64,000 bases of DNA. Source: Blasia pusilla (lineage: Eukaryota). This document shows positions 5,967 through 29,300 of the stretch, in pieces. The notes below the pieces were generated by a model. That model made no database searches. It worked only from the letters and a program-made list of their open reading frames with translations, and had not been told where the DNA came from. The stretch lies in NCBI GenBank assembly GCA_050084515.1, contig CM114271.1, positions 25,668,001-25,732,000 on the forward strand, in the 5' to 3' direction. The translations under genes and the position numbers were made by a program. Every line of letters starts with the position of its first letter. Positions within the stretch are counted from its first letter, which is position 1.

Positions 5967-7004
5967 CCTCCCACCAAAACCGTCTGGCTCGTTGTAGGAT
6001 CCGATCCCGCTCTCTAGCACCCAGCAACGCGTTGGTACTCCAAGACCACTTCAATCGTGAAGACCATCATCTCCTCACCGGCCTCTGGATCTTAGGACTC
6101 TCCATCATATCTCGCCATCGAAGTCTCAGAAATTTGGCTCTCCATAGCCAACAAGCCCAAATAGGCTGACACATGCCATCCTGGGACCAACTCCTCATCA
6201 CTCTCACCATGCCAACGATCTCTAGTTGCATCTTGCTGACTCGGGCATGGGTTACGGCTCAAACCATCCCATCCTGGTTGAGCGTCCCAAGTCTATGCAC
6301 CACCTAGAAGTCATACTCCAACAACAAAAGAGCCCACCTCGCAAGCTTCCCTGTAAGCTTGTCCGACTCCATCAACCACTTAAGTGGCTGATGATAAATA
6401 ATGATGGTAAAGGGATATGTGACAACCCACACTGCAACCAAGCACTCACCCTCATACGAGCTATACTTTGCCTTTGCAGCGTTGTTCGAGCAACTAGCGT
6501 AAGCCACCACAAACTCTCTACCATCATCGTCATGTTGGATGAGCACGGCTCCAAGCCCCAACATGCTCCAATCGGTATGCAACTGGAAAGGACGCACCCT
6601 GATCGGTCTCCTCAATATGGGCGCGAACGTCAATCTATCCTTGAGCATCTGAAATGCTCACTCCTTCTCATCCTCCCAGTGCCACTCCTGAGCCACCTTG
6701 GTCAGCAAGGTCAGCGGCTTTGCAATCGAGCTAAAACCCTTGACGTATCGTCGATAGAAGTTCGCCAATCCCATGAATGCACAAACTCGACTCACATCTA
6801 TAGGGCGTGGAATGCATGAAATAGCCTCTACCTTCGTCTGCTACACACCAAGGACCCTTGGGTATATCGTTTGACCCAGATACTCAATCTGGTCGTAGAA
6901 GAACTTGCACTTGCCTAGCTATAGCTTCAGCCCACGTAATTGCAATCGTCAAAACACCTCCTCTAGATGTCGCTCATGCTCCTCAACCGTGGCGCTAAAG
7001 ACTA

Positions 7005-7975
7005 TGATGTCAGGTCCATCGCCTGACCCAAGACATGATGTCGTGATGGCTCCAATTGTGATGGTACTAGCTTCACTCCTATGGGGAATCCCATCATTTG
7101 CTCTCGCTCATCGGCGTTGGGCTCCACCAACCTCTGTACCTGGTCATCCCAAACCAAGCCAGGTCCGGCCTCCTTGAATGCATGGGAAGCGGCCTCCTTG
7201 AATACATTGTGAGTTTTCTCGCTTCCCATGCATTGAAGGAGGCCGGACCTGGCTTGCTCGTGGCATGCCAATCCTATTGACCACAGTCAACGGTGGTCGA
7301 TCATCGTGCCTCACTACCTATGATCGACAGCCCGGATCCAATATAGAATCCACCAACAAATAGAAGGGACACTCCACTCTCATGTAAGCCCTCCACAACA
7401 CCTCATGTGGTACCAAGTTGGTCCACTAAAGATGCGGTCGGTGTGCTCTAGAATCTACACTCGCCATATCTAACAACACTCTTGGGCCGATCCATGCGCG
7501 CACTTGATGTGGACTCGTCACCATGCAAGACCTCGAATCGCCCAAAATTGGAAATTCTCCAAAATGCATGGTGGAGAATGAGGCTGATGCTCCTGTAAAT
7601 GTCGCAAGATCCGCATTATCTCCCAAAACAACCTGGACCGAGTGTAAGCTAACCCGCTATCTCATCCAACACTCGATTGGCCCTGACACGACCGACCAGT
7701 AATGACCAAATCTATGGTCCCTACCCGCTCCAAGTCTTGCGCCCTCAACAATAAAATGTCCCTCGGTAGGGAACTTTGGTAACCCTGAATGGTGGACGCA
7801 GACAACAAGTCGGGAAAATGGAGGCGTAACTGCGCCATATGGTGAAGTGAAGCGCGCCTCTCAACATCATCAATCTCCATATACACGTACTGTTGCACGC
7901 GCACTCCAACGTGCAAAAAAGCAACTAAGCCAGTGTTGATCCCTCCAAAGAGATCCAACACCCGAATAGCCTCCT
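7005..7975 (-). pseudogene. E1 DNMT3-like cytosine-5 methyltransferase domain (catalytic PC mutated to SC)
   Basis: IRVLDLFGGINTG, DLVITGRSCQG, HRPHL, EREQMMGF, HVLGQAMDL; frameshifts present. Confidence 0.85.
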
Positions 7976-8622
7976 CTGGGATGCACCACACAATCAGGGT
8001 GGTGTCCAAAGGGGTCATAGCAGCACTCCTGCCTACTTGGGGTTCCTCTGACCCATCACACTCTACGACAGATATCTCGCTCCACGCGGTCTGCACATGC
8101 TCAATGGCTAAGCGTCGAGCCCCAAAGTGGCACCTCTCCTCCACGGACTGATGCGTCTACCATGACACTCCTCTCCATAGACATGTCAAGAATGGGAGTA
8201 TCTCTGCATGGACATGTCCCTCGATCAAATCACTAGGCCAAGTGATGGCACTGCTAAATGCTACTAAGGTCACCATCTCTCCTTACCGTCGCTCGATCAC
8301 TGCACTTGTGAATCGAACGGGTAATGAGCTAAGGCGTCCATCACCTGACTACCATCCTGGTCTGTAGGACGCTGACTCCTCCCAATAATCCAAGGAAACC
8401 CCCATTGGGTATAACACTGCTCCACCATCCAAGACATCGTAGGACTCTACATCAGTCACTATCGCCTTGGCTCGCACCACTGACTCATCTGTAAGATGTC
8501 CCGGGCGAATCCTCACCACGACCTCTTTTCGGGTGATGTACTCGCTCGACTCAAGGATTTCTGTATCCGGAATGGACAACACTCCATATCGGCTCTCGTC
8601 AATCCCAATCCTTTGAATGACG

Positions 8623-8989
8623 TGTCATGACCATACGGATTATGTCGTAGAGTATAGTGTGCTAGTAGAGGCCATTCCTTATGTAGGACCGTAGTGGCTT
8701 GGTAGAGATGCGGTTTCATACATAGGGTTGGGGGTTACTCGAGTTGGGGTGACTTTCCCAGAGGGGCCGCTCTTAGATTGGAGGATATAAGGTGGAGTGC
8801 ACTCAAAGAACAGTCAGTCCTTTGAGTTGAGCCTGTTGCGTTGGGAGTTAGCCTTGGTAGTGAGTAGAGCCCTTGGCTATGGTGTTTCCCGCAAGCTTCG
8901 ACCTAGATTCTCCCATCGTGGAGTGGGTTTGGCTCAATTTTATGTGATTCTTTACATATTTTATGACAGTAGGTCTTTCACGGATTTCA
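8623..8989 (+). repeat. E2 repeat A1 (copy A2 at 17931-18294); contains TATA-like gatataag at ~8784
   Basis: Near-identical direct repeat; both copies end cggatttca. Confidence 0.95.
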
Positions 8990-10733
8990 CTCAAAGAACT
9001 GGAGTAGATCGATGGTAGCTTCGATTGTAGATCAGTAGGATCTGGTTAGGGCTGATTGTGTACTCAGCCGTGGATGTTCGTGGCTTGTGGCCTATGTTGG
9101 AGGTGTGACTCTGGTGCGTGGTTGGTTGAAAAAGAAGCGCCTTGCTGAGAGCTTTCCAATGTGTTTTAGATCGCCGGATTTTGTCAAGGGAGTTGGAAGT
9201 TATCAAGGATTGAAGATTATGGTTCGTGTTCGACGGTTTTCTGATGTGGAGAGCTTGGAGTGCGGAAGCTCTGTTGAAGTTCATCCAGATCGGGTGAGAG
9301 GTTCCTGTTGTTACTTGTATTGTGATCTCATGTGAAGCTATCTGCTGGAGTGTGTGGAGCGTTGCGGATTTCAGCGTGCATGAAACTTGGCGGAAGCGTT
9401 ATCGGATTTGCGATTATGGAGGTGTATGGACAACAAATTTGTCTGATTTTTAGCTCAGAGTACAGAGCTTGATTGTAGCTGATTTTTTGTGGATAGATAG
9501 CTATGGTGGTCAATTGAATTCTGGTTGAAACAAATTTGATTTCGGTCACGGATTTGTGAAGTAATTGCTGATCAAAATTTTGCGGACTAGCTGAAGGTCA
9601 AGCTATGGTGGACAGCGGATCGGAGGGGCTGGTTGGTTGGTGACTTGTTCATTGTTGGAGACGCCTATCCCATTGGGGGCGCCCTGGTTGGGCCTCTCTC
9701 CATAGCGAAGCATGGCGAACGGGGCGATAGGGGCATGTCTCGAGCATTTCGAGGCTTGGAGGCAACTCGTGGTAGCTCGGGGCGAGTGGGCTCGAGAGGC
9801 GGAGTAAGGAGCAAGGAGCAAGCAAGCAAGCTTGCTTGCTTGAGCGTGAGGCAATTTTTGCAAGATTTGGGATTTGAGTGTTGCATAACTGGTCACCCAT
9901 CTTTGGGCTATTCTGCTTGGAGGACGCTTAACTGCTGAGTTCTTAACTATGCCAGTGTACAGACTGTTGTAGCTCATTTGGTGCTATTCGGAGATGTGTT
10001 AGGCGCTTTATGCATCTCAGGTTTTTGGTTGATGTACCTCTAGCGCATAGTACGGTGTAGCCTCTCCATGCAGGTGATATTTTCAGTTGCTGCGAGTTTG
10101 ACTAGCATGTCATCGACCCGCGGCGGAGTAGCTATTGCGTTAGAATTGTGTGGTGGGTTTTGTGGATTCAGGGGGCACCACGTTTGGTGGATTATGTTAC
10201 CTTGATTTCCATTTGCGATTGGAGGATTGTCGTTGGACTTCCTGTGTTTGGATCCCCTCCATCGGTGCTTCTTGCTTGCGCGCCCATTGTTAGGGTTGAC
10301 GCTGATTTCCAGAGTAGTGTTACTCCTGTGTGCTACCGGTAGTGAGGCTGGAGGGATGACAAGTAGACCGTGGGAGGCTTCTTGTGGTGATGACAAGTTA
10401 GGTTGCCTACACCCATAGCTAGTAGAGCTAGAATAGTATAGCGACATCGACGTCACTTGGTTATTTGGTGGTGGTGCGGCATCGGCGTTGGTCATCACGG
10501 AGCTCTCGGGTGGTCTGGTTGGGGACCGTAGTGCGGAGAGTGGTGGTTTCACACGGATTGGATTTAGGTATCGGCTACCTTTTCCACTTCCGACGGTTGA
10601 TGAAGAGGAGGACGAGGGTGTTCCAAACACCGAGTCTTCTACGTTGTTATCGAGTGTTGCAGCTCCATTGATTTGCGACATGGACGGTGGATATGGGGCC
10701 ATGAAGGGCCCACGCGATACTGGTGCAGTGTAA

Positions 10734-11900
10734 ATGGGCACCATTGAGTTGGAGGACTTCATGCAGGAGTTTGATACGTGGTGTGATATGCAAATGTTTG
10801 AACGCCACGTTGTTTACACCCTTCTTGGCTTGGAAGGGTTGTTTGACACTTGGAAGGACCACCCATGGATGATTACCATGAGTTTAGGAAGGACCATGTT
10901 GCTGAGATTGAGGCATGGAGACAATATTGGTCTCCAGGCTATGTGTCTATCACCCATGGTGGTATTGGTAGTAGTGCTCCTACTATGCCAGCCAGCCCGA
11001 CGTTGAGTGGTATGAGTACGAGCCGGAGTGGGGGTACCAGTGGAGGTAGTAGTGGAGGTAGTAGTGGAGGTACTGGTGCCCCACCATCGTTCAGCCCGGT
11101 TGCAGAGTTCTTCAAGAGGTTGAAGAAGAACTATCAGGGAGTGAAGACGGAGAAGTTGAGGAGTCTTCAGGAATTTGAGCGAAAGACTGGTGAGAGTCTT
11201 CGTGAGGCATACACTCGTATGCGACGCTTGATTTCGATTACCAGGGTGTGATCGAAGATCAGCGATCGATTTTGGTATGGGATCTTGGATAGAGATTTGT
11301 GCCGTAGGGTACGTGATGCTACTCTTATGAGTGATGATTCACCCACATTGACCCATGTGTTTGCTCTATCTGAGAAGATTGAGCTTAACATGGTGAAGGA
11401 GAGAGTGGTGACATCCGCATTCAGTAGGGATACAAATACTACTTCTTGTGTTCAGTAGCCCACCTCACAGTCTCGTAGTAGTGGTGGTGGTAGTAGTAGT
11501 GGGAGTCGTGGGGGTACACGACCGACCTCCAGTCCTAGAGGACACTTGCGCAGAGACCATTGCCTTCATTTGCTGCCCCGCAGCAGGGCGATCATGTTGG
11601 ACATGTGGAGGTGATCATGTTAGGAAGTTTTGTCCCCAAGAGGATGGGAGACGGACTTTGGAGGATGGGCCTCAGTCGGCCCCAACTCAGCGTGATCATT
11701 GCGGGAGACCAGGTTATCCTCGAGAGCGTTGCTTTGATCTTCATCCAGAGTTGAGATCAGGCCGCGACCATGGTGGAGTAGCTCCGAGAGGCCGAGGTAG
11801 TAGAGGTGGTAGGGGTGGTAGAGGTGGACCAGTGGTTGGAGAGCCTACGGTGGCTACCCCTACCACTACGACAAAGTCGCTATGGCTTTCAGGATTGAGC
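10734..11900 (+). pseudogene. E2 Gag with two zinc knuckles
   Basis: GTIELEDFMQEFDTWCD, FERKTGESLREAYTRMRRL, CWTCGGDHVRKFC, and (C)DHCGRPG(H)PRERC; frameshifted. Confidence 0.85.
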
Positions 11901-12499
11901 GATTGGAGCAGTTGGCTACTATGGTGGTATCCAAAGATAGATCGTGTTGGGAGCAGGGCTTCCACCTCTTATGGAGGGGATGATCTCTCTTATATGGCGA
12001 GAAAAGATGAGTTGAGGCATCAGCTGCGATTCTGAGGAGCCACTCGGCGTGAGCCACGTGGTGCTCTTGGGAGTTGGACCCACAGAGGGGTGAGGCCGGG
12101 AGGCGGGCTAGGCTTCCCTAGTCATTCTTGTTGTGCGAGGTGCTTAGGACTCCATCCATGGTTCCTCGCAGCCTATTGAGAGCAGTGGGGACCGAGGCAT
12201 CTAAATCGCGTGTAGTAGACACGGATGCAGCATCCAGTGCAATATTGCAGATGGCAACTTTAGTGTTGGGATCCCCATTGTTTTCGGCCACGGAGCTGAT
12301 GGCTTTAGGAGTTGACTTAGCTCCTGTATTTCAGCAAGCAGCCACGTTGTGTGAACGTGGGGGTGTTACTGCTACACGTGTTGAGATGGATGAGGGTGTT
12401 GCGGTGGAGCGACCCTCTATGTCAGGTGTAGCATTGAGTACCAGTGCTACTTGGCAGGCAGCAGCGGTGAAGATGGATGCATTACCAGCCCGGCCAGCC

Positions 12500-12970
12500 A
12501 TTGATCATGAGAGGCTTACACCTGGTGTATGTATGTTGGACAACCGGAGTGGGATCTTCCGATTGGTGAGTCCTACAGGACAGGTGTATAGACCAGATAG
12601 AGTCTTGTTAGACTCTGGTGCCCAACCTTTGATGTTGGGAAAGGCGGCATATATTGGTTTGGGTATCCGGAGGTCAGAGCTTGAGCCTTGCCCATTCTAG
12701 ATTCAAACCTCACTTGGAGGAGCCAATGATAGGTCTCAATTCATGACACGGGAGAATTTTCTGTACATTTGAGACCAGATCATGCGACTGATAGCTCCCG
12801 GTTGGGAGTATCTGCGGTAGTCACATCAGCCGAGTCGTATGATGTACTAGTTGGAGGAGCAATATTGTACCCGATGGGTTTTCAGATGGATTAGTGGACT
12901 GAGACAGCGTCTTATAGACCTGGTTGGCAGTCCGGGATGGACGTATGAGCCAAGTTCCTGTGAGATTTAT
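12500..12970 (+). pseudogene. E2 aspartic protease
   Basis: RVLLDSGAQPLMLGK and ESYDVLVGGAILYPMGF. Confidence 0.85.
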
Positions 12971-13332
12971 TTATGGGGCTCGACCGAGGAGGGTCTACAC
13001 CAATAGTGTTAGCATCTGTGGCTGGTTTTAGTGGAGTAGTCACTTGGCCAGGAGACTTTTTGGAGGGTAATGTTTCTGCTATGGATTCTCCTGCGCATGA
13101 GGAGATAGAGGAGGTCCCTATTTTTGCAGCGGTGGCATCCTCATTGTTAGATGTGCCACTTTGGAGTTCAGGCGGTGCACTATGGCAGGAGGCTGATCGC
13201 CTAGTGCAGGAGGCTTGGTGTGAGGTTGTTATACCTCACGAGGAAGAGGAGGCCCCACGGCGGACTCCTACTTTTGGTCCAGTTGGGTTATCCCCTTTGG
13301 ATACTACACCCATTGTATGGCAGTATCCGCTA

Positions 13333-14285
13333 GAGGGCATTTGTGTGTTAGATCTCTTTGGTGGGATTAGCACGGTTTGGTCGATGTTGCAAGCCGGTAT
13401 TCTGTCTTGGAGATACGTGTATGTGGAGCGAGATGAGACGGCCCAGAGAGTCTCATCCCGACATATTGGTCAGTTGATGCAGAGATATCCTGAGTTGTTG
13501 CCGCCATCAGCTATTCGTGGGTACCAACGTGCTTTGCCGTCACACATTGCATTGTTGGGGGCGCACGACCTTGAGAGGGTTGGTCCTGTGGATTTGGTGA
13601 TTGTTGGATGGCCATGTCAAGGTCATACACGTGTAGGTCGTGGTGAGGGATTACACGACCCTAGGTCTCGATTGTTTTGGGAGATGTTACGGGTGTTACG
13701 ACATCTTGAGTTCATCAGCACGTGCTCGGCTTACATTCGTCGAGAATGTTCCATTGTTGGGTGACACTTGGACCCAGATGATGGCGAGTGTTCATGAGGT
13801 GCGGTCTTGGATTGGACCAGTGGTGTTGTTGGATGCAGCGCGAGTTGGCTCGCATGCACATCGTCCACGCTTGTGGTGGATAAACTTGTTGCCTAGGGAG
13901 GTTCTACGTCGAGCATATGATGCAGTGCAGCGGGATCCTTGCCTTACCGTGGATAGTATCTTGGATACTGGGCAACTTTCTCAAGTGGTGAGGGTTATTG
14001 ATCGGTCACCCATGGCAGTGGTGAACCGTGTGGGCCAGCCTAGGATGGCACTACCCACATTTGTGAGTTTTCCCTTGTCACATGCCTACAGAGAAGGTGG
14101 TCCGGGGCTTGTATTGGATTCTCATGTGCGACAATTGGTGGAGCCTAACGCTGATAAGAGAGAGCATGCAATGGGATTTGCTACTGGTGTGACAGCGGTT
14201 GCTTCTATTTCTGAGGCTTCACGACGTCATGTGTTGGGTCAGGCCATGGACCTGAATTGTTTGACTTGGATTTTGAGTCTTGGTA
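13333..14285 (+). pseudogene. E2 DNMT3-like cytosine-5 methyltransferase domain within pol
   Basis: Motif I VLDLFGGIST, motif II YVERD, motif IV DLVIVGWPCQG, SRLFWEMLRVL, motif VI ENV, motif VIII DAARVGSHAHRPRLWW, motif IX REHAMGF, motif X VLGQAMDL. Confidence 0.92.
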
Positions 14286-14619
14286 TGGCGCTTAGCGGCT
14301 CAACCGGACTATGTCGTGGGTCTTCCACCCCTTGTAATGAGCTCGATGGCTACCGGGGCCGGTAGAGGCATCGGTGGGGCAAGGAGAGTAGTATTTTGCA
14401 TCCTTGGAGTAAATGGGATGTAATGGGGGCATGTGGAGTTGGTTGCTCATCTTTGGTGGAGGAGTTATTTGCTCGAGATGATGGTGTAGCTAAGGGTGTA
14501 CCATCTTGTGAGGGGGTTGCGTAGCAGCCAATGGCATCGTCCTCTCCTTCTAGTGTGCCAGTGGAGGAGACTTGGGAGCCATTACTTGAGCCCAAGCTTA
14601 CGGGAGGTGAGAAACGACG

Positions 14620-16000
14620 CTTGACAGAGTTCCTACGTGCTTATAGGAGTTGTTTTGCCTTTAGCATGAAGGAGTTGGGTTCTTTGGTTGTACCCGGTAT
14701 ACGGATTGATTTGGCTAGTGATACACCAATCTTCCGTCGTCCCTACCGATATAGTGATATAGAGAGGGACCTGATTCAGAGTAGGACGTTGGACCTTTTG
14801 GAGGATGGATTAGTGGAGTTGTCGCATGGAGAGTATGCATCAGCCACTATCATGCCTGCTAAAAAGGATATGCATGGCAACTACACGGATACGCAGATGT
14901 GTGGAGATTACCGTCCTATCAATCGGAAAACCAAGGCCGATAGGTATGCCATCCCTACACCTGAGGAGATCTTTGATGTGTTGGGACAGGCAAAGATTTT
15001 TAGTACTTTGGATCTTCGGGCAGGATACCATCAATTGCCGATTCGGGAGAGTGACAAGGCCAAGACAACATTTTGGGGTGTCAACTCTCATGGCAAGGAT
15101 TGTTTGTACCATAGGAAATTCTTACTCTTTGGGTTGAAGAATGCACCTGCCGAGTTTCAGAGAGTGATGGACAGGATCCTAGGAGGGTTGGATTTTGTTC
15201 GGTGTTACATTGATGATATCTTGGTGTTCAGTAACACGGTGGAGGAGCATCAGATACATTTGCAGATGGTGTTTGAGCGGTTGAAAGCTCATGGTCTACG
15301 TTTGCATCCAAGAAAGTGTAAGTTCTTCCATGAGGATGTTGAGTACTTGGGTCATGTGATCTATCCAGGTGGTTTGGGAGTTCAGCAAGCAAAGGTGGAG
15401 GCTATTGCACTTATTCCGCGTCCGGTAGATGTGAGTAGAGTTCGGGCATTCATGGGATTGGCAAACTACTATCGGAGGTATGTGAAGGGATTTAGTGCTA
15501 TGGCAAAGCCTTTGAACCAATTGCTGAAATCAGATCAAGAGTGGCACTAGGGAGATGATTAGGAGAGAGCTTTTGTGGAGCTTAAGGCCCAGTTGGTGGC
15601 GGCGCCTATCTTGAGGAGACCTATCAGAGGGCGCCCATTTCAGTTACACACTGATTGGAGTAGGTTAGGACTTGGAGCGGTGTTGACACAACATGATGAT
15701 GAGCACATGGAATTTGTGGTGGCCTATGCAAGTCGTTCGAATAATGTAGCGGAGTCGCGCTATAGTTCATATGAGGGAGAGTGCTTGGCAAAGAGTGTGT
15801 GGTTGTGGCACACTTTAGGTGTTACTTGTTTGGCACAGTTTACCCTTGTTATTCGATCATCAGCCGCTCAAGTGGTTGATGGAGTCGGACAAGCTTATAG
15901 GGAAGATCGCACGGTGGGCTCTTATCTTACAGAGTATGACTTCCGGGTGGTACATAGACTGGAGTTGCCAACCTTGATCTTTGATGGGTTGAGTAGGAAC
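14620..16000 (+). pseudogene. E2 reverse transcriptase + RNase H (Ty3/Gypsy type)
   Basis: MCGDYRPIN, FSTLDLRAGYHQL, FGLKNAPAEFQR, YIDDILVFS, FQLHTDWS..GLGAVL, AYASR. Confidence 0.95.
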
Positions 16001-16229
16001 CCATGTACTAGCCAAGAGGATACAACTGGGGCTAGATGGCATGGCGAGGTTGATGAGGAGATGGTGCCAGGTTGGCATGCATCCGCCTTTTTATGTTGGT
16101 TAGGGGTGGACTCTAGTATGGAGGATCACATGATATCTTACTCTAGTCAGAGGATAGATGGCTAGCCTTCAGATCCTAAGGTTGGAGATGGTGGTACGGA
16201 TCAGCGTGATATTCATGATGATGCGTTGG

Positions 16230-17649
16230 TGTTGGAGTTCCTACCGACCAGTAGGGTGCCAGGCATAGTGAGTGCCAAGGAGCGAGACCGTGTTCTTCAA
16301 CGTGCTAAGAGGTATCGATTGGAGGGAACACATATTCTCCGCGTGTGGGAGGATGGTAGAGTACAAGTAGTGCCACATTTGGCTCAGAGAGAGCGTATTG
16401 TGCGACATGCCCATGAGGTGTTCGGACATTTTGGGGTAAAGCGTACGTATAGCTTACTCCTTGGCCAGTATTGGTGGCGTGGCATGCATACTTAGGTGCA
16501 GCAGTTGGTGTCACGTTGTATGGTTTGTGACCGGGTGAGGGCATCATTCAATGCCCCTACACCAGAATTACACCCCTTTCCTATTATGGGGTTGGGTTAC
16601 CGTTGGAGTGTGGACTTTGCGGGACCGTTACCGTTGACTGTACGACATCATCGATATGTGTTGGTGATGGTGGAGCACTTCTCCAAGTGGATTGAGTTGG
16701 TGGCATTACCGGACAAGGCAAGTGAGGGAACGACATATGCGTTTCTTGATAGAGTGCTTAGTCATTTTGGTGCACCAGCTGAAGTGCTGACCGACCAGGG
16801 TACAGAGTTTCAGGGTGAGTTTCAGGTCTTGTGTGACAAGGCGTTGATTGATCATCGGACCACGTCTCGAGATCATCCAGAGGTGGATGGTTTGGCTGAG
16901 CGTGTGGTTCGATGATGAAGAGGGCATTGCGCAAGTATGGCCTATAGAAGGGGCATCTTGGAGACAGGATATTCGATTTGCCATGGTTAGCCATGGGGTA
17001 TAGGTTCAGTCGCCAAGCATCCTTGGCTTCCTTCTCACCTTATTTTTTGTTATACGGTTGAGATCCAGACTTGCCAACAGCAATTCGTCGGGAGTCTAGT
17101 GAGGTGGTGAACCTTGATGACCTAGAGATGTGGATGAGAGTGTGTTCTCGGCCAAGGCGAGCTCTTCGGAGAGTTATGCCAATGACCTTTGAGAATCTTG
17201 CCATTGCTCAACACAGGGATACGTTGCGGTATGCAACCATTCGGGGTGGAGGTTATCGACCATCGATTCGTAGGTTCCATGTGGGGGACTATGTCTATTT
17301 GCAGCAGATTGCACCGACAACGTTGGATGTGACGGCCGGCCGCACTATTTTACGAGTGCGCGAGGTGTTAGCTTCTGGAGTTCTCATGTTTGAGGGTCGT
17401 GATGGAGTTGTTTGGAAGGACCATGTGCGTAATTGTGCACCATGTCATCTTCCAAATATGGATGGTAGTGTTGACCCAAGCTTAGCCATGATACGCGCTA
17501 GCTTGAGGTGCATGTTGTGTGGGTCTGCTGGTAACGCAACCCGTATGTTGGTGTGTGATCGGTGTTCTAGGGGTTGGCACATGATGTGTTTGACTCCACG
17601 TATGGATGTTATTCCTACTGGAACGTGGGTTTGTCCTCGATGTACTTAG
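16230..17649 (+). pseudogene. E2 DDE integrase with C-terminal PHD finger (17509-17643)
   Basis: HAHEVFGHFG...CMVC (HHCC), WSVDFAGP, LTDQGTEF, GLAER; ends CMLCGSAGNATRMLVCDRCSRGWHMMCLTPRMDVIPTGTWVCPRC (C4HC3). Confidence 0.93.
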
Positions 17650-17822
17650 GAGAGGTAGATGACTTGATCTTTGCATGATATGAATTACAGATGTGCGACT
17701 AACGATGGGGCAACCTAGCACCCGGCCTTCTGATTCGGGCACCCAAGAAGGTGTATAGCATGTAGTAGATGTATAGGGCTACCTGGGAGTTAGAGGGACC
17801 TAACCGCCAATTAGGGGGGCGA

Positions 17823-18400
17823 GTTGTGGTACACTTGTGTTTGTGGATACTCTCGTCTATGTTATGTATGTATGTGAGTATGGTATGTCAGCGATGTATG
17901 TTGTATGACGATGTGGATTCGCACGACAGTTGTCATGACCATACAGATTATGTCGTAGAGTATAGTGCGTAGAGGCCATTCCTTATGTAGGACCGTAGTG
18001 GCTTGGTAGAGATGCGGTTTCATACATAGGGTTGGGGGTTACTCAGTTGGGGGTGACTTTCCCAATAGGGCCCGCTCTTAGGTTGGAGGATATAAGGTGG
18101 AATGCACTCAAAGAACAGTCAGTTCTTTGAGTTGAGCCTGTTGCGTTGGGAGTTAGCCTTGGTAGTGAGTAGAGCCCTTGGCTATGGTGTTTCCCGCAAG
18201 CTTCGACCTAGATTCTCCCATCGTGGAGTGGGTTTGGCTCGATTGTATGTGATTCTATACGTGTTTTATGACAGTAGGTCTTTCACGGATTTCAGTTGTG
18301 GTACACTTGTGTTTGTGGATACTCTCGTCTATGTTATGTATGTATGTGAGTATGGTATGTCAGCGATGTATGTTGTATGACGATGTGGATTCGCACGACA
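17823..18400 (+). repeat. E2 3' end: B1 (17823-17928) + gt + A2 (17931-18294) + B2 (18295-18400), preceded by PPT aggggggcga
   Basis: B1 and B2 are both 106 bp and essentially identical. Confidence 0.95.
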
Positions 18401-21400
18401 GACGCTTTCCCCAACATCAGGGGTTGCGCTCCTGAATCCAACAAGACGCGTTGCAGACTAAAAGCTCTACCTCCTCGACTCACCAGCAGGAAGACCTCTC
18501 CTTGGTTATCCAACAAAAAAACATGAGGAGATGCCATGGCGCGCTCTATCGCGGGTCTAGCGGGCATCTCCGCCATCCTAGCACCCAAGCCTGCCATGAA
18601 TCTAACGTGGACGGCCCGAGCATTAGCTCCAAGGGCAGGTCCATCACCTCCTTTGCAATCACCTCTGAAGGTGATGCAGGAACTCCAACTCCACGCTCAC
18701 ATAGCGTAGCGGCCAGCCAAAAAACCTTGGCGGACGTACCTCCCAACGTCATAACATCAGACGCAAAAAATAAAGGAGCACGGTACACAATGGTGGCCGC
18801 CCCCAACAACGTGCTTGACACATGCTTACATTCACTTCTCTCATCGCCCTCCGTGCCTCCACACCAACAACATCACCAACTCTCCATGAACTTTGATGAG
18901 GACCTATCGATGGGGTCCTCATCGCCTTGGACAACGTGAAAGACTGAGGAAGCCTGGTTTGTTTCTTGGCGTCCCCTCGCTATGGATTCAACTTTGCAAC
19001 TGCTCCACGCGTCACAATTGCAGCGGCCTCCATCTGGGCAACCCCACACATCCAACCAAGATCCTCCATATCTCTGGCTGCTCCATATGATGTCAATGCC
19101 ACAGATCTGGCATCGGGTAACCTTAATGCCATAGCGGCAATCTACTCATGTAGTTGTTGTATCTGAGCACCCATCCTAGCCTCATGCCCGACATCTTCCT
19201 CAACGCATCTACATGTTGGGACTCTACCTCCTCCACGGGCAACTCCACCACCCTGTCGGGCAACTCCAACTCCTTGTCCCTTAACGGGACCACATGGTGC
19301 ATAATCTGTAGGCCCACCCAAACCAGCTACTCGCCCTATTGCCCTCTTTGGCCCTCGGTCTGGACGTAACTCAAGGTGTAAGCTGAAACACCTGGCGCAT
19401 GTGTGACCATACCTCTGACAATAGTCACAGTGATAACCTCCTTGTGCAGCACCATCTCCTCTTTCATGCTGAGGCATACGTCCATGACCCTGACGAGTGC
19501 AATCGCACTGATGATGGGCTCCACCATATGACCAACATGTCATTGTAGGTGGCTGCTGTTGAGCCGCATATGAAAGCGCACGTCTCTGTGGCACAGCCTC
19601 CCGATATCCTCCTTGAGCTTGTGGTGCCATATATAGTCGACCTATCTCGGAGTCTAAGTTGTTGCACAAGTAGTACAGAGAATCGTGATTGCTCTCGCCC
19701 AGAACCCATGATGGCTACGCTCTCCTCCGCCATGTTGCGCTCCTAAAAATATCTTTGAACGTAGGGGAGGTGTTCATAAGAAGCACCCCTCTCGCACCTG
19801 TGTCCGTAGGGTCGAGTCCAACATCGCGTACCATGACTGGATAGCATGAGCCTTTGTCACCCCCTGAGTGACGTTGATCAACTGGCGCAAGCGAGTGTAA
19901 GCCTCACAAAAACTCTCACCCGGACGCATGTGGAAGTCGTGGATGCTCCGCAACTTCTCTGTCCATACCCCTTGGTAGTTCGTCCTCAACTCAGCAAAAA
20001 ACTCAACCACGGGGTTGAACCTAGGACAAACCCGACTACACGGTGAATTGCTCCAATGCGAGTTACCCCTCCTAAAACATTGGAAGAGGAAGAAGCCTCT
20101 CCTCACTCCTCCTCCTCATCTGGGAACGGCTCCGTCCATGACACATAGTATGGGTCATAGTAGAGTCGCCATGCCTTAGTCTCTTGGGCATATCTGTGGG
20201 AGAACTCATGGTAATTGTCCATGGGTGCCTCCTCTAAATGCTGGAACATACCGTTCCATGCTGTAAACGGGTTGAACTCTCTAGAGTTCCTAGCCCGCTG
20301 TGAGTCGTGCCAACTTCTAAACTCCGCGATGAAGTCGTGCAACTCTATCGTGCCTACTACACGTGAGAACCTACGTGGTCTTATCCCCTGGTTGTCCATC
20401 TCTTACGCCCAAGCAGTAGGACTACTCAATGTGAGTGGCAAAGCACTACTCAACTTCTCTACGCCCTCCTCCTCTTCTGAAGATGACACAGAAGGAGGTG
20501 AGGTGGTCCCTCACGTGGAGACCCTTGAAACCTCGCACCACTCCAAGTAAACCCTCCAGAGCTACTCTCTGGTCCACTACCTTGCCTCTCAAAATTCTGA
20601 AAGGACGTGGTGATGGCCCTCGTGCCCCTCATGCCCCTCTCACACGATCACTCCCAATCTCGCGAGTAATCCCTCAATCACTCAAACTAAAGATACGGCA
20701 CTCAATCTACACTCTCTCACTAAGACGTGTGTTCTGCGGCAACAAGCAGCGTGGTACGGCAAATCAACTGATCTATCGTCTTATCGACAAACCATCCTCA
20801 ACTTTGGACATCCCACACAGGTCTATGTCCCCTTAATCCATACATCATCGATGCTCTCAGCATCAGCACAAAACCCAATATCCCAAATAACTTCCCAATA
20901 CCCGAAAATCCCTCACACGTGTAGGGTAAGAGACCAGAATGGGTAACCTGACAATAATGTCGATGTCCCTCCTCGTCAACTATAAATCTCGACCCCAACC
21001 TGGTCGTGAAGACAACTCCTCCAATGAGCAAGTCGTACTCCTCTCGTATTGACGCTGCTCAAACCTCCTCGATGTGCACTGCAAGTCCAGCGGTCCGGTG
21101 CGGCACCAGCGGCACGGAACGGCTACAAATGGTAGGGGCTACGGCACTCGAAGGCATACCCTCCTCAATCAGAAATTCACACGCTCTGCTCCTTAGTGAA
21201 GGAGCAGCTCCACGATTGAGATGGTGTAGTGCGGCCACGAGCCGCACGGCGTGGCAATCGGCGGTGCGTTGCGGCTACGGGCATCACGGCACGAAACTCA
21301 ATCTTCGTCGAGCGGTTACGAATCACAACATAGCAGCATGAAATGAAAACTCAAACACCATTATCCGAGATCACCTGCCATGACTGGTTGATGACAAAAT

Positions 21401-22088
21401 TGCGATGACGGTGGCGGCTAAAACAAAGAATCAACGGTCGTCGTGGAAGACCCTCCACTCCGTAATGGCGGCAATGGCAACCAAGTGTGGACAATGGCTG
21501 AACGCGGCTTTGAGCAGCGCTAGGCGGCGATGGAGGCCGAAGGTGGACCATTGAAGGAGACGGTTGACCATTGATGGTGATGGTGGACCATTGACCATTG
21601 ACCGTTGACGATGACTTTGACGGCACAGCGGCTAGTTTAGGGTTTCAACAATTTAACCCTAAAAATCGCCTTGCAATGGAAATTTTTCAAGATTGACCAT
21701 AACTTTTTGCTTGCAACTCCAAATGCTACTATCTTTAGGTTTCACATCATTGAAAAATATTTTAACCCTAAAAATTTGTAGTAAATCCCAACGCTACATA
21801 AATTTTGGCAACGCTCGCACTAATTTCTCCCAATAAAATGTGCTTCCGCAGCACCGGCATGGGGCAACCTGCCTCCATACTCAATCCCTATCAAAAATTG
21901 GGTAGCGCTTTTGCGCGCCACTCTTCCACACGAAAAATTGGCGAAGGAAACATCACAAGTAAGCGGTTCTTGCTCCGGTGCGTACTCCCATCAACCGCTG
22001 AATAGGGAATACAATCCCCAACCTACAAAACTAGCAAGTGACTAGCGAGCTCCTCGATGAACTCTCTTACTCACTCATTCTCTCTTTG

Positions 22089-22591
22089 TAAAATAAGATC
22101 CAATATCTCTCGCAACACCATAGTTCTCACATGTGTGCACTCTCACAATGTCAAACCAAACCCACTCTCCTAATGAGAGGATTGGGTTACACTCACAAGG
22201 CAAGAGACTGTAGTTCCGCCGCCTTGTCCCAAGAGGTTCAACAAAGAGAGAATGAGCTCTCAAGCTCTCTCCTTGAGGTATACCCCTCCCCTCTCCCAAG
22301 CTCTTTCCATGGTAATCTATGCTCCCAAGTCACCTCCTTGGATCTTGACCTGATGTAGGATGTCAAGGGCCACTTACCAAAAATAGAAAGTTGATCATAT
22401 ACTCAAAATGGTACTTGCCTAAAATAGTAAGTTTCTCAATATGGCTCCAAATGAACCGAAACGAAGGGGAAACCTGCTCTCTCAGATTTCTCGGGGCCTC
22501 AGTAGGTCATCTTCTACCTCCTGAGTCTGTCCTCCACTACTTGAGAAGACGTTCTACTAAATCTCACCGATCTATCCTAAAAGACATGACA
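22089..22591 (-). repeat. E1 repeat A1, homologous to the E4 A repeats
   Basis: Reverse complement aligns by eye with 52811-53324. Confidence 0.9.
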
Positions 22592-22713
22592 AATGTCTTA
22601 AAATCAAAGAAGATTGGAGGCCAAACTCACAAGAGGTGAAAATTGGAAGTATTACCTTAGCCTCTATTAGAGGAGAATCTCTACATAAAATAACGTACTA
22701 TGAGTTGACAAGT

Positions 22714-25326: not shown

Positions 25327-25625
25327 TTATAAAATCTCTCTATACACTGCATTATATGTGGAGTTCAACTTTTTATTTCCAAGTGTAGTATTTATTGCTT
25401 TCCTATGTCCTACTCTAGATAATGTTACATATAATTGGCGCTGAGAAAAAACAAGAGTAAGTAAATAACTCCCAAATTTTTGTAAAATTTGACCTTGAGA
25501 CTTATTTACAGTCGTGGAAAAAGTAGAACGAATACGGAATTGAACACTACGTAGATCAAAAGGTAAAGCGGAATCAGATGCGATTAATGAAATGCGTAGA
25601 ATAAAAACACGATCTTCTTCCCTCT
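25327..25625 (-). pseudogene. Helitron PIF1-like helicase C-terminal fragment
   Basis: LPFDLRSVQFRIRSTFSTTVNKSQGQ...VFSQRQLYVTLSRV...NAVYREIL. Confidence 0.85.
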
Positions 25626-26371
25626 GATAATTTCCGCAACAATCACATGTTTCATAAATACAAACATGTGGAAGTAGGTTAGATAGCAAGCATGTATTAA
25701 AGGGCTCATTCAGCCGTTATCCGAGACCAATAACTATAAATTGGTAGGTAGGAACAAGGTCCCGGTAGTTTTTTCATGAAAACCAGTAGATTTCCGACCC
25801 ATACAAAACCGAACGGTAAAGTCAGAGACGGATGGACGATAAAGACAATGTATCAGAAACCTTATGAAAACCACAAACCTTCACTGTTCAAAAAAATTCA
25901 GGCGCTGTCATCCAAAAGTGGTCAAATTTGACGATCTCATCTGCTATATTATATTATCCAATTTGACGCTCGAGATATTCTTACATCAATAGTTCTCCAT
26001 TAAACTTGTCACGGAGAATTAGATTTTTAATCCATAGCGTGGAAGGTCCTGGATAACGATAGGAACCTCGGACCATGGAGTCAAATTCTACAAGAGTCGT
26101 GCAAATGTTACCCACTTCTTGTAGGCATGTACAACGCATCCTATACAAAAGTTTCGAGTAAACTGTACAGTTAGAGATTGCTTCGTCTCCGCTATCCACA
26201 ATGAGATATACGGTGAATTCTCAAATATGATCAATATGAGAATAGTACCTCAAAGACCCTTCTCCGAGATATGGACGATGTGATTTCGACAGATTATATT
26301 TTTAGGAACAATGTTGTAACCATGGAAGATGGAGACAGTTACTTGCCTAGGGCCAACTCTTTTGTTCCCAC

Positions 26372-29300
26372 TTACTTGACTCCAGCTTTATCCCTCGCCG
26401 CTTCTTCCTCGGCATTGGTTACACATTCAGATGCAAGGGCACGAACTGCTCTGCGGTCTACCCCTCTGCGTGAATATTCTCGCCATCTCCTGGTCGCTGC
26501 AGCTGTTTTGGCAGCTCTTTCACGGGAATACTTATCTTGAGACAAGAAGTTTAGGACCTCGAGTTAGTATGAATAAAGGTGAGACAGTAAGAGAAGCTAC
26601 CTCGAGTCATCTCTCAGATGAAGAATCCTGACAGAGACTCCGTATGTTTGAGCATATCTTCGACTTCACTTGATGACAGTTATCAAAGCTGGACATATCG
26701 ATTCAGATACGATCTATATTGTGTAAGAAACAGAATTTCTACTTGTCGAGTGGTCAAGAATAGTACCTGCAGCAGATTTACTGCGCTCCTGGTCTGGCGT
26801 AGAGTTCCAGTTCACTTTCCACCACGCTTCCCTCCCAGTTTTGCCACCCTCTTTCATCATTCTTACTCGAGCTTGATCCTGAGTTTACGAAATCCTCCGT
26901 CAACCAGACAATTATTCTTTTGCCATATCTACGCTCTTTCGAATTGAAGACATACCATAGATGTATGTGGGCAAAACTTTTCAAATTCTGAACTCTCGCT
27001 CTTCTTGGAACAGTGGCGTCTCTTCTGGACTTGATAGAGCGCAGATGAAATATTTTTTCAGGAGTATAGCGGTGTTGAGCTGGGGAAACAGTACTCTGGG
27101 ATAACTTACCAAAGCCCTGGCCTGACGCTTGTCCCATCTCATGCTCGCCTGTGATGAGAATGAACAGCTTGTTTAGTACACCAGGGTATTCCATCTGAAC
27201 ACCAGTACTAAGCTGCAGCAACAATAAACCTCGAAGGAAACTAAAATGGGTGAAACTTTGACTGTCGTACCTGCGCGAAGACATCTGGAGATTGATACCC
27301 CATGCCCGAAAGCATCAAACCCACCTGATTGGAATAAGGGGAAAACAAGCGTCAAGATTTATCTTAAGCTGACAGGGCGTTACAACTGATACGCAGCTAA
27401 GGAATCCAGAAAGAAAGAGTGACGGAGATATCAAAGATAAAGAATAACCGTATCGACCGAACAGCACATTTGGACCACTTCACTGGTATCGGACTGATGA
27501 CAGATCTACGATGTACTTCTAGTAACAACTCTGCAGCAGCTCGCCTTCAGATTATTTGTGAAAGAATGGTAAGGGTTCAAGAGAATTCACATTGACGCGC
27601 TCCATCCTTCGCATTTCATCTTCTAAAAGAGCGAGCTGTGGAGAAGATATCCAATGTATACAATCTACAGGGCTGCAGTACAAAGAGGACATGTCAAGCT
27701 CAGAAAAGAGAGTCAGCAAAATCTGATTGCTTACACTTGACACGCGAGATGTGAAGGAAAAAGCGTTTCAAATCACAAGTTCAGTTGAATTCACTTCATA
27801 TCATGATAAGAAACACACGGCCAACTACAAAGATCAATAATTGTCTGTTTTCCTGATCGTCAAATATGTAGACACGCACCACTGAACATGAAGGAATGTT
27901 TCTCCAAAGCTGTGCACTTACAACAGCAGTGCAAGACTTGGCAGGTTTCTCTAAAGGAAATGCTCCTGCTCTTGTACAGATTTGTCATCGAGGTAAGAAT
28001 TCGGGGTTTTTTCAGAGTGGAACCATGTCATCAGAAGAAGGGAGGCTATAGATGTCTTACCATGTTTCAATAGCTACCTGCACAAGGCGTTGATTCCCAC
28101 ATTGATTATGAACTCTTGCCCGACCATATTCATCTTCAATCTCAAACGTATCTGGCGCCGTGTTTCCACAGTTCTTGCACCCTACTCGACCATTTAAGGG
28201 GCAATTAGCGGAATAGACAACAGAGCCCTCCTAGAAGGGAATTGATTTCCACAAAAACCATTTCCATGTCGTCACACCTCAAGACCACGCAAGGACAATC
28301 CAAAACCATTTCGATCTCTGACAAACAGATGCGAATCGAGCACTTGCCGAACCGAATCTATGAAGTAGCTGTATACCTATGCAAGTAAATTCGTCGACAA
28401 ATGCGTGATCTCGTTCAGCATCAATATCTTTGAAAGGATTAATAGCTGTAAGTGTGTAGCCGTTGATTTCGTCATAAACAAGACGCTGTTCTGGATCACT
28501 TAAGACCTGCACAGTGCGTACCAAAACATTTAGTGGGGAGTTCGGTTCAAATGTAGCTAATGCATAATTATCAGAGAAACCAGACGAGAAGAGCTTTTAG
28601 AGACGAGACGAGGAGACAAGGATGACAGCCTTAGAATATTGGTATTTGCTGTAAATGGAAAAGGCCTACGCAAATTTGTTCCTCGTACCTCGTATACTTC
28701 ATTAATGAACATACAAAAGTTGCTCACGGCGGGATCATTTCCACTCAGGTCGGGATGGCAGGTTTTCATGCAACAGTAGTATGCTTTTTTTATCTCTTCC
28801 GGTGTAGCATCAGGCGTCTGTCAACCACGAAACAATTTTTACATTCAGTCGGAAGAGTATGAGCTCATCAAGGGGTGAAAAAAAGAGTCATGGCATTCCA
28901 ACAAAAGACACAGATAATTAAGATATCAATGATGTCAACCGCAGATTCCCTCAGATAAATTCTCGTTTGTAGTTTGATCCTGAACATTGCAAAAACTTCT
29001 TAACTTCGTTACTGTCCCACTCAAATTTTGAGTCAGACATTAAGAAAATTCGCCAGCGGATGCTTAAATTCACGCTGTCAGGGCTTGAAAGGCTGGAGTC
29101 TTGAAATTTTCTTAACAGATTGCAACTTCTGACGCTTGCCATGCACGCTACCATCTTTAAGTCAACTGAAGAAGGGAGCCTCATACAAATATATTTGCAA
29201 TCGCAGAGGACTTTCAGGTTCTCTCTAGAGGTTTCAGGAAAGAAACTGACAAGTAGATTATGACACCTGGTTGGAGAAGAGCTTCAAAGCTTCACTAGCA

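Follow-up and report, generated by a model that had tools for sequence, protein, structure and literature searches.

The locus at positions 13333-14285 lies in a 64-kb stretch of DNA that was analysed as a whole (the window), and it raises the question of why a cytosine methyltransferase should be encoded within a retrotransposon, to which enzyme family it belongs and what it could do there. Each of the window's four Ty3/gypsy elements (E1-E4) contains a C5 cytosine methyltransferase domain between protease and RT, and positions 13333-14285 fall within the domain of E2. A tblastn comparison of the two ORF pieces that cover the E2 domain (12964-13764 and 13637-14365) with the window returned four methyltransferase copies, located at 12964-14365 (E2, + strand), 37097-38389 (E3, - strand), 57524-58757 (E4, + strand) and 7005-8276 (E1, - strand), and protein identity among them is 39-64%. 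This search and the domain mapping of E1-E4 bear out the claim of an earlier note on this DNA that the domain occupies the same site in all four elements.

Four decayed Ty3/gypsy elements

E2 is a decayed, full-length element (8623-18400, + strand) that sits within E1, is flanked by the TSD GACG (8619-8622 and 18401-18404) and has the termini TGTCA...CACGACA. On the + strand, its 5' terminal repeat A1 (8623-8989, 94.9% identical to A2) is followed by a gag region that matches residues 1-458 of the Marchantia protein P0001 with several frame changes (10680-12071), a protease region (12185-12760, active-site LLDSGA at 12605-12622), the DNMT3-like domain (13288-14310, approximate limits set by P0001 residues 864-1204), RT and RNase H (14525-16342; RVT_1, RT_RNaseH and RT_RNaseH_2), the integrase core (16496-16915; rve) and a PHD finger, which the Pfam scan places at the C-terminal end of the integrase ORF (17509-17643). 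The 3' repeat block (17822-18400, + strand) consists of B1 (17822-17929), A2 (17931-18294) and B2 (18294-18400), with the polypurine tract AGGGGGGCG immediately 5' of B1.

The insertion of E2 split E1 into two pieces, both on the - strand. The 3' piece (5997-8622) contains the C-terminal part of the protease, the DNMT domain (approximately 7011-7991) and, past a deletion of roughly 1 kb, the C-terminal part of RT with RNase H, beyond which E1 is truncated. The 5' piece (18405-22597), which is 80-86% identical to E4 at the nucleotide level, carries repeat A (approximately 22089-22597), gag and the start of the protease (LLDSGA, 18427-18444). E3 (32922-42608, - strand, TSD AATA) and E4 (52811-63119, + strand, TSD GCTT) are full-length and likewise decayed. 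The repeats of E3 are A1 (42134-42608), B1 (33532-33670), A2 (33053-33529) and B2 (32922-33048), and its DNMT domain lies at approximately 37079-38071; E4 contains A1 (52811-53324), B1 (62345-62475), A2 (62475-62992), B2 (62992-63119), the DNMT domain (approximately 57815-58810) and a PHD finger (62024-62158).

Protease (with its DSG motif), RT, RNase H and integrase follow each other in the order of Ty3/gypsy elements, with RVT_1 and rve both present, and all three full-length elements show perfect 4-bp TSDs together with TGTCA..CACGACA ends and a polypurine tract. E2, E3 and E4, as well as the metagenome locus L043, share an A-coding-B-A-B repeat layout that departs from the usual LTR element by an extra repeat B on either side of the 3' A copy; A1 and A2 are 94.9-96.9% identical in the three window elements. 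No conserved TGG-type primer-binding site was recognised after A1 in E2, E3 and E4, as judged from the element sequences themselves.

This layout bears on whether the methyltransferase stretches could be pieces broken from a host's DNMT3 gene, or motifs that arose by chance, lying beside retrotransposons. Nested insertions can in general place host exons next to transposon ORFs, and nothing further speaks for this reading, which is practically excluded: the stretches keep the same position in four elements as divergent as 39-64% protein identity, lie inside TSD-bounded elements and, in intact relatives from several species, form one ORF with Gag and protease, while the HMM and profile scores given below are far above chance. 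The constant position in the four elements, together with the TSDs that bound the full-length ones, ruled out host fragments and chance matches.

All four window copies are dead, and none is able to make the protein. Within the DNMT domain, the lesions, counted as lower bounds, amount to three stops and two frame changes in E1, one frame change without stops in E2, seven stops and one frame change in E3, and three stops and two frame changes in E4. The frameshift of E2, near 13700, falls after motif V and before motif VI and so divides the domain. According to the earlier note, the domain is in frame with the protease in E3 and E4; this applies to E3, in which a single HSP in frame -1 spans protease through DNMT (38971-37079), but only partly to E4, where the common frame is limited to the C-terminal part of the protease and the N-terminal half of the DNMT. 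Protease and DNMT are encoded in one ORF in the intact relatives P0001, P0006, P0010 and P0012. The window elements themselves are fossils, whose value lies mainly in marking the spread and age of the family.

A DNMT3-like methyltransferase

The first ORF piece of E2 (12964-13764) matches the Pfam model PF00145 (DNA_methylase) with 25.3 bits (E 1.2e-5), above the cut-off of 22 bits and in keeping with the proposed enzyme class; the second piece (13637-14365) has no Pfam match, which leaves one of two pieces with a PF00145 hit. Three of five relatives scanned (P0001, P0008 and P0010) match the same model with 35.1-35.6 bits, and no PF00145 match was obtained for P0019 and P0020.

Located by pattern, the motifs of the window copies follow the order I-IV-VI-VIII-IX-X. 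In E2, all on the + strand, these are motif I (LDLFGGIST, 13348-13374), motif IV (VIVGWPCQG, 13597-13623), motif VI (13739-13759), motif VIII (13850-13879), motif IX (14153-14179) and motif X (14234-14251). E1 also contains all six, with motif IV changed to RSC and the PC lost. Motifs I, IV, VI, VIII and X were found in E4, and motifs I, IV, VI and VIII in E3, where a stop lies within motif VIII; the pattern search did not find motif IX in E4 or motifs IX and X in E3. By pattern, the ordered set of six is complete in E1 and E2 and comprises five motifs in E4 and four in E3. The mapping agrees with the earlier note that motif IV keeps its catalytic PC in E2, E3 and E4.

Among solved structures, which are what this comparison covers, the best matches to a single sequence were DNMT3A/B/C (1.7e-8). 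When a profile of relatives was scored against the solved chains, DNMT3A ranked first (6.6e-18), with DNMT3C and DNMT3B at 8.8e-17 to 6.7e-13, followed by NtDRM (7.9e-11), DRM2 (3e-7), the bacterial enzymes M.HaeIII and M.HhaI (about 1e-6) and chains of the tRNA methyltransferase DNMT2 (8.8e-6 to 3.5e-4); no solved DNMT1 chain was matched at E<=0.01. The alignment with DNMT3A is collinear through motifs I-VIII (profile positions 16-203 to residues 7-174) and IX-X (292-322 to 238-268), and in DRM chains the match is confined to profile positions 14-143 and falls at DRM residues 225-350. Judged by its sequence, the domain is a DNMT3-like, non-permuted C5 methyltransferase, unlike DRM. Profile ranking and collinear alignment together sustain the earlier view that it resembles DNMT3 rather than MET1/CMT or the permuted DRM.

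Compared with the cellular enzymes DNMT3A/3B/3C (8te4, 6w89, 6kda, 8tci), blocks are shared near motifs I, IV, VI, VIII (RAHRxRxxWxNL), IX and X, while the element domains have a longer segment separating motif VIII from motif IX (profile positions 204-291 versus residues 175-237 of the DNMT3 chains). The element domain is also set in a Gag-PR polyprotein and lacks PWWP and ADD, for which no Pfam match was found in P0001, P0008, P0010 or the E2 ORFs. Companion domains are likewise absent from protist and algal DNMT3s (PMC12344493).

Domain arrangement, relatives and selection

The DNMT forms the C-terminal domain of ORF1 (Gag-PR-DNMT), which ends about 70 codons further on at an in-frame stop ahead of RT; downstream of this stop, ORF2 encodes RT-RNaseH-IN-PHD. 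The description of the domain as embedded in pol is correct in that it lies between protease and RT, but has to be amended because it ends ORF1, upstream of a conserved stop. The stop is TAG CAG CCA in E2 (14522-14530, + strand) and TAG CAA CCA in E3 (36828-36836, - strand) and E4 (59081-59089, + strand), so that CAA or CAG follows it in all three window elements that retain the region, as it does in 41 of 43 related loci in which an ORF2 start was found. In Marchantia and Calypogeia, the products of intact ORF1 copies terminate at this position. The exact UAG CAR YYA type, the type I stop-codon readthrough motif of tobamoviruses (PMC3542737), occurs in E2, E3, E4 and the loci L016, L053 and L054, where it separates an upstream ORF from a downstream polymerase ORF as in these viruses. 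Unlike in tobamoviruses, the host of the motif is a retrotransposon and not an RNA virus, and most related loci end in C, their commonest post-stop context being CAA CCC (or CAA CTC), i.e. YYC instead of YYA. Among 28 loci of at least 8 kb, the stop is still flanked by long ORFs in L005 and L053 only, and in both loci ORF1 and ORF2 share the same frame. RNA structure 3' of the stop was not supported in six sequences of 120 nt (covariation term +0.56). Given the YYC context of most loci and this result, context and conservation of the stop are the sole basis on which readthrough is proposed.

Named relatives come from the liverworts Marchantia, Riccia and Calypogeia, from Sphagnum mosses and from the alga Closterium; mosses and liverworts are also the nearest matches to the genome of the window. 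Protein searches gave 22, 76 and 223 matches, with the proviso that these searches are word-based and may miss distant relatives. An exhaustive profile search produced 577 clusters at E<=1e-30; the best 150 profile matches, and those listed for the protein searches with 76 and 223 matches, all reach or approach the scores of element-borne domains (E 3.7e-13 or better). The domain is found in two orders, either ahead of RT or flanked by RNase H and integrase, which correspond to separate clades in the DNMT tree; Closterium has the order seen in the window and falls into the same major DNMT clade. The window copies belong to a clade of 21 of the 212 tips together with Marchantia and Calypogeia (support 0.858), and the tree confirms that several sub-lineages lie side by side in one window of land-plant type. 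Read contigs of about 150-700 nt from X13, X18 and X20 show 92-97% likeness to 12000-16000 over DNMT and RT, their RNA label being a guess that carries no reading of expression. The DNA run X1 contains 81,357 contigs at >=92% to the same region, indicating that the family is highly repeated in X1 and nothing more.

In the DNMT domain, pN (0.26-0.35) is below pS (0.52-0.74) in six of six inter-lineage pairs from the window, values to be read with saturated dS and with a codon pairing that followed the protein alignment and so favours low pN; RT-RNaseH gives similar pN/pS values. The window's own pairs were used because the metagenome DNMT stretches mostly carry stops: 16 of 17 gap-free stretches contain one to five, and L002 alone has none. 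With pN far below pS, the data indicate past purifying selection on the domain in active lineages.

In an active element, most ribosomes would halt at the UAG and yield Gag-PR-DNMT, so that the methyltransferase would be made in Gag-like amounts and RT-IN-PHD would remain scarce, being produced via readthrough. The DNMT would then be freed from the polyprotein by the protease and could methylate freshly made copies of the element or the sequence surrounding the insertion site, and the PHD finger of the integrase would read a histone mark and thereby influence site choice, by analogy with the chromodomain of chromoviruses. The cleavage, packaging and cDNA methylation envisaged in the earlier note are equally hypothetical. 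Methylation of the element's own DNA may have been the selected role, a conceivable reading of these sequences for which the balance is nonetheless somewhat unfavourable.

Retention of the domain for something other than methylating DNA at C5, such as RNA methylation, non-catalytic binding of DNA or SAM, or interference with host methyltransferases, is improbable, even though several observations are compatible with it. Motif IV varies among the 208 full-length relative domains (PC in 99, EC in 69 and DC/SC/CC in 13), so that some branches of the family may have altered or lost catalysis; placement in ORF1 and a Gag-like dosage would also fit a structural or RNA-directed function; and the domain of a Klebsormidium element produced no DNA methylation in yeast, a test that its authors called inconclusive (PMC5890265). 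Human DNMT3B failed in the same yeast system (PMC5890265), which makes this negative result weak. Furthermore, the bryophyte clade retains PC, ENV, the R-x-R of motif VIII and motifs IX and X, and the nearest solved relatives are the DNA methyltransferases DNMT3A/B/C, with the RNA enzyme DNMT2 scoring far lower (8.8e-6 to 3.5e-4). On the preferred reading, that of a DNA methyltransferase, the enzyme might serve in self-methylation, camouflage or copy-number restraint or, jointly with the PHD finger, in site choice. From the position of the DNMT ahead of a presumably leaky stop, its amount compared with RT and integrase can be predicted.

Comparison with known retrotransposons

That retrotransposons can carry a DNMT, which the earlier note cites as a precedent, is confirmed by the description in 2018 of the Gypsy element KnitGypsy-Dnmt3 in the alga Klebsormidium nitens (de Mendoza et al., PMC5890265), and streptophyte elements have been called 'Gypsy-DNMT3' in a bioRxiv preprint (10.64898/2026.05.21.726589). 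The window elements belong to this kind, and its prior publication for streptophytes lowers their novelty. New here are the bryophyte-type host range, the large family, the DNMT at the end of ORF1 before a conserved stop, the two domain orders and purifying selection. Reports of such elements in bryophytes were not found in a literature scope that included PMC12344493, PMC6453930, PMC10538959, PMC11982613, PMC8616336, PMC6317226, 10.1101/363937 and 10.64898/2026.05.21.726589, with subscription journals mostly outside this scope, as were supplements; bryophyte elements may be present already in the DNMT trees that accompany PMC12344493 and PMC5890265 as supplementary material.

Like the window elements, KnitGypsy-Dnmt3 is an LTR Gypsy element with a non-rearranged DNMT3-like domain within the polyprotein, its repeats follow the A-coding-B-A-B layout ('same as a DIRS retrotransposon', Fig. 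4c legend), its domain is under purifying selection and its copies are silenced or decayed in the host (PMC5890265). Differences concern the hosts, since the relatives described here reside in Marchantia, Riccia, Calypogeia and Sphagnum, plus Closterium, and the UAG-CAR-YYA stop and the integrase PHD finger, which were not found in the passages of PMC5890265 consulted here ('PHD': 0 occurrences). Common descent is argued from architecture and repeat layout, which are what this comparison covers.

Very probably, the window contains four degraded copies of a streptophyte Ty3/gypsy lineage bearing DNMT3, representing at least two to three sub-lineages (E2; E3; E1 with E4) and constituting bryophyte-type relatives of the Klebsormidium Gypsy-DNMT3. 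It is unlikely, by comparison, that the bryophyte-type elements took up a host DNMT3 independently, with a separate origin and convergent features. Recurrent capture has been argued in PMC5890265, no Klebsormidium protein was named among the matches listed (22, 76 and 120 of 223), and the DNMT occupies two positions that correspond to separate clades of the DNMT tree, which means that the domain was gained or moved more than once, or has moved. On the other hand, the unusual A-coding-B-A-B layout is common to KnitGypsy-Dnmt3 and the window elements, the streptophyte alga Closterium combines the window order with membership of the same major DNMT clade, and word-based searches with match lists seen in part can overlook distant relatives.

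A shared streptophyte lineage also allows a broader, tentative and rather doubtful proposal, in which Gypsy-DNMT3-PHD would be an old lineage across zygnematophyte algae, liverworts and mosses and not an oddity of Klebsormidium, the DNMT would be made at Gag dosage before a tobamovirus-type leaky stop, and copies with an intact ORF1 would persist in Marchantia polymorpha. If true, transposon-encoded DNMT3 activity would still be contributing, in land plants, to de novo methylation or heterochromatin self-targeting. Transposons equipped with the very enzyme by which hosts silence them turn the usual arms race around, which is rarely seen, and the published cases are algal. A lineage living in bryophytes, including the transformable Marchantia with an intact ORF1, would open the role of the enzyme to genetic testing.

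Other known systems share parts of this architecture. SymbioDIRS-Dnmt3 and SymbioLINE-Dnmt of Symbiodinium are retrotransposons that also encode a C5 methyltransferase, and SymbioDIRS-Dnmt3 has in addition a DNMT3-like domain in its Pol polyprotein and A-coding-B-A-B repeats (PMC5890265). It differs in retrotransposon class, with a tyrosine recombinase in place of the DDE integrase found here, and in the kingdom of its host; de novo CG methylation in yeast was shown for SymbioDIRS (PMC5890265). A histone-reader module at the C-terminus of the integrase is shared with chromoviruses and PHD-bearing retrotransposons (PMC6673714), although, unlike in chromoviruses, the reader is a PHD finger instead of a chromodomain and is accompanied by a DNA methyltransferase. 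The EpiLTRs of Cymbomonas and Euglena similarly unite a DNMT and a chromatin-reader domain in an LTR element, but their DNMT is sister to DNMT4, is located at the 3' end of pol and is accompanied by a chromodomain as well as an adenine methyltransferase (10.64898/2026.05.21.726589).

The methyltransferase domain and its constraint

Positions 13333-14285 fall within E2, one of four decayed Ty3/gypsy elements (E1-E4) in the window, and had been read in the earlier note as a DNMT3-like cytosine methyltransferase (DNMT) domain. ORF calling places the E2 domain on two stop-to-stop ORFs of the forward strand, 12964-13764 and 13637-14365. The first, N-terminal piece matches the C5 DNA methylase family PF00145 (25.3 bits; cut-off 22), the Pfam family named in that note, and the second alone has no Pfam match; ORFs further downstream match RVT_1, RT_RNaseH, rve and PHD. 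With the two E2 pieces as queries, tblastn locates four copies in the window (12964-14365 and 57524-58757 on the forward strand, 37097-38389 and 7005-8276 on the reverse strand), at protein identities of 39-64%. Pattern searches recover motifs I, IV, VI, VIII, IX and X in this order, with the catalytic Pro-Cys kept in E2, E3 and E4, as previously seen, and Ser-Cys in E1. The Pfam match, the four copies and the ordered motifs therefore establish the domain in all four elements as real, far beyond chance.

The best solved chain for P0001, an intact Marchantia relative, is DNMT3A (1.7e-8). When a profile of five intact relative domains is ranked against solved chains, DNMT3A also comes first (E 6.6e-18), followed by DNMT3C and DNMT3B (8.8e-17 to 6.7e-13), tobacco DRM (7.9e-11), Arabidopsis DRM2 (3e-7), M.HaeIII and M.HhaI (about 1e-6) and the tRNA methyltransferase DNMT2 (8.8e-6 to 3.5e-4); no DNMT1 chain is matched by this profile at E<=0.01. 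DNMT3A aligns collinearly, motifs I-VIII then IX-X, whereas the DRM chains align only via their permuted half. The top rank of DNMT3A and the collinear motifs thus support, among solved structures, the proposed DNMT3-like rather than MET1/CMT or permuted DRM type.

Translations show that all four elements are broken. Counted as lower bounds from tblastn paths, the DNMT domain carries at least three stops and two frame changes in E1, no stop and at least one frame change in E2, at least seven stops and one frame change in E3, and at least three stops and two frame changes in E4; ORF1 of each copy has at least 7-10 stops and 5-7 frame changes. The E2 domain is split between motifs V and VI by a frameshift near 13700.

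For the selection check suggested in the earlier note, codons of the four copies were paired via alignments to P0001 and P0008, both related proteins, and stop-bearing codons were removed. In all six pairs, pN of the DNMT domain (0.26-0.35) lies well under pS (0.52-0.74). The ratios, 0.12-0.36 for DNMT and 0.11-0.49 for RT-RNaseH, are rough because pS approaches saturation and pairing guided by protein alignment depresses pN; the direction is clear, and the DNMT domain was constrained about as strongly as RT during divergence of these lineages.

Reading frames, repeats and insertion

In two related metagenome loci, L005 and L053, the DNMT and RT ORFs share one frame with a single stop between them, and the sequence context of this stop is conserved. 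It was located by walking upstream from the conserved ORF2 start in every sequence where that start was findable. In E2 this walk first meets the stop TAG CAG CCA (14522-14530, forward strand) in frame, and in E3 and E4 TAG CAA CCA; the region is missing from E1. In 41 of 43 loci (exceptions L033 and L044), TAG or TAA is followed by CAA and then by CCC, CCA, CTA or CTC. The ORF1 proteins P0001 and P0006 (Marchantia), P0010 (Calypogeia) and P0012, all intact, end about 70 residues past the DNMT domain, at the stop position. UAG CAR YYA is described as the tobamovirus type I readthrough signal (PMC3542737); E2, E3, E4, L016, L053 and L054 fit it exactly, whereas in the other 38 loci the final base is C. 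RNA structure downstream of the stop found no support. From the shared frame, the conserved stop context and the protein ends, we read the layout as two ORFs, Gag-PR-DNMT and RT-RNaseH-IN-PHD, putatively joined by readthrough. The earlier placement of the DNMT between protease and RT holds in that the domain precedes RT, but it does not lie simply within pol, forming instead the C-terminal end of ORF1 before the stop.

Direct repeats, termed A and B, were located by repeat finding and pairwise BLAST. E2 (forward strand) contains A1 8623-8989, B1 17822-17929, A2 17931-18294 and B2 18294-18400; E3 (reverse strand) A1 42134-42608, B1 33532-33670, A2 33053-33529 and B2 32922-33048; and E4 (forward strand) A1 52811-53324, B1 62345-62475, A2 62475-62992 and B2 62992-63119. 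B on both sides of the 3' A gives the layout A-coding-B-A-B (E2 17822-18400, E3 32922-33670, E4 62345-63119), which is also found in metagenome locus L043 (10238-10805) and is described for the KnitGypsy-Dnmt3 element of Klebsormidium in a figure legend (PMC5890265). A1 and A2 are 94.9% (E2), 95.0% (E3) and 96.9% (E4) identical. The three elements start with TGTCA, end with CACGACA and are flanked by perfect 4-bp duplications (GACG, AATA and GCTT, respectively). The polypurine tract AGGGGGGCG immediately precedes B1, and the B1|A2 joint, ...GACAG(T)TGTCA..., looks like a two-LTR circle joint. In the window elements, this layout coexists with an integrase of the DDE type and with target duplications of 4 bp. 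E1 (reverse strand) is interrupted by the E2 insertion into a 5' part (22597-18405) and a 3' part (8622-5997); its nucleotide identity to E4 is 80-86%, about 1 kb of RT is missing, and the element ends prematurely after RNase H.

E4 probably inserted into a Helitron: a Helitron_like_N ORF (63125-63475, forward strand, 85.5 bits) begins at profile position 48 and adjoins the E4 end, and an open frame (52422-52790, forward strand) terminates just upstream of E4. By eye, the reverse-strand ORF 25330-25716 resembles the helicase portion at the C-terminus of a Helitron or PIF1-type protein, with no Pfam match at E<=0.01. Two host-like exons on the reverse strand encode a UBA_ARI1 domain (ARIADNE-type E3 ligase N-terminus; 394-900, 29.8 bits) and a DnaJ domain (28560-28820, 34.6 bits) by Pfam.

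The sense strand of E1-E4 is G+T-rich, with a GC skew of about +0.2 to +0.26 and an AT skew of about -0.1 to -0.15. This strand bias peaks at the third base of codons, where E2 RT has G 0.35, T 0.33, A 0.17 and C 0.15, and could be a codon habit of the family or reflect C-to-U and A-to-G conversions in the RNA or in the plus strand. Repetitive stretches comprise a long (GA)n/(CT)n microsatellite (1160-1370) giving RE and SL runs in every frame, three tandem units of 104-110 nt in the E3 5' region (41285-41602), and three of 69-75 nt (51193-51409) within ORF 51164-51715, which has no Pfam match.

Relatives and domain orders

Three word-based protein searches gave 22, 76 and 223 matches, 120 of the 223 being listed. 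Named sources among the matches listed are Marchantia polymorpha (many), M. paleacea, Riccia sorocarpa, Calypogeia fissa, Sphagnum fallax, S. troendelagicum and Closterium sp. NIES-53/54, with no Klebsormidium-named protein among them. In an exhaustive profile search, the number of clusters was 577 at E<=1e-30, rising to 3233 at E<=1e-10 and to 16800 at E<=1e-3, a total that must take in ordinary C5 methyltransferases. One 455-aa DNMT-family protein (P0261), on a 2.4-kb contig labelled 'Candidatus Obscuribacterales bacterium' (a cyanobacterial-type MAG), probably represents a eukaryotic contig mis-binned into a bacterial genome. In air metagenomes (runs X11, X12, X14, X16), 0.15-0.19 of the E2-stretch words are present.

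Two domain orders occur. The window elements share Gag-PR-DNMT-RT-RH-IN with Marchantia and Closterium P0052, and P0049, P0073 and P0068 have RT-RH-DNMT-IN-PHD. A FastTree phylogeny was built from the four window copies (X at breaks) and 208 near full-length domains, these being the ones among 351 collected proteins that gave a single profile match spanning at least 300 positions. Midpoint-rooted, it separates the two orders into clades of 70 and 140 tips (support about 0.80), with 7 and 78 labelled tips, none misplaced. The window copies belong to a 21-tip clade with Marchantia and Calypogeia (support 0.858), in which all named relatives are liverworts. Closterium lies outside this clade, and the other named relatives beyond it are liverworts or Sphagnum mosses; this distribution makes a bryophyte host likely. 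E2 clusters with the metagenome sequences P0004, P0256 and P0271, and shares 80-82% nucleotide identity with several metagenome loci; E3 and the pair (E1, E4) make up a second branch, which lies deeper.

Motif IV reads PC in 99 of the 208 domains, EC in 69, DC in 6, SC in 6 and CC in 1, and was not found in 27. Glu-Cys occurs in Closterium P0052 and many checked relatives with the DNMT between RNase H and integrase; the bryophyte clade retains PC. This variation suggests that the chemistry may differ between branches of the wider family.

Possible function and known elements

In these elements, the last domain of ORF1 is of DNMT3 type and was formerly under selection, the integrase bears a PHD finger, and the insertion marks are of integrase type. 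Most translation would halt at the UAG, yielding Gag-PR-DNMT in bulk, from which the protease would release the DNMT. The enzyme could then methylate new element DNA or the insertion site, and the PHD finger might assist chromatin choice. Proposals made in 2018 comprise cDNA self-methylation, camouflage, protection from deamination and self-restraint, and a yeast assay of the Klebsormidium domain is reported as negative and inconclusive (PMC5890265).

The literature searched contains no report of the bryophyte elements, the leaky stop or the two domain orders, which is weak evidence because supplements and most subscription journals lay outside its scope; the main text of a plant LTR reference survey (PMC6317226) mentions no methyltransferase, PHD or Marchantia. 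The kind of element is already published (PMC5890265). It is described as 'previously reported in streptophytes' (PMC12344493), and a 2026 preprint cites 'streptophytes (Gypsy-DNMT3)' (bioRxiv 10.64898/2026.05.21.726589). For KnitGypsy-Dnmt3, the published Klebsormidium nitens element, the reported Ka/Ks is < 0.2 (PMC5890265), in agreement with the constraint on the DNMT domain in the window.
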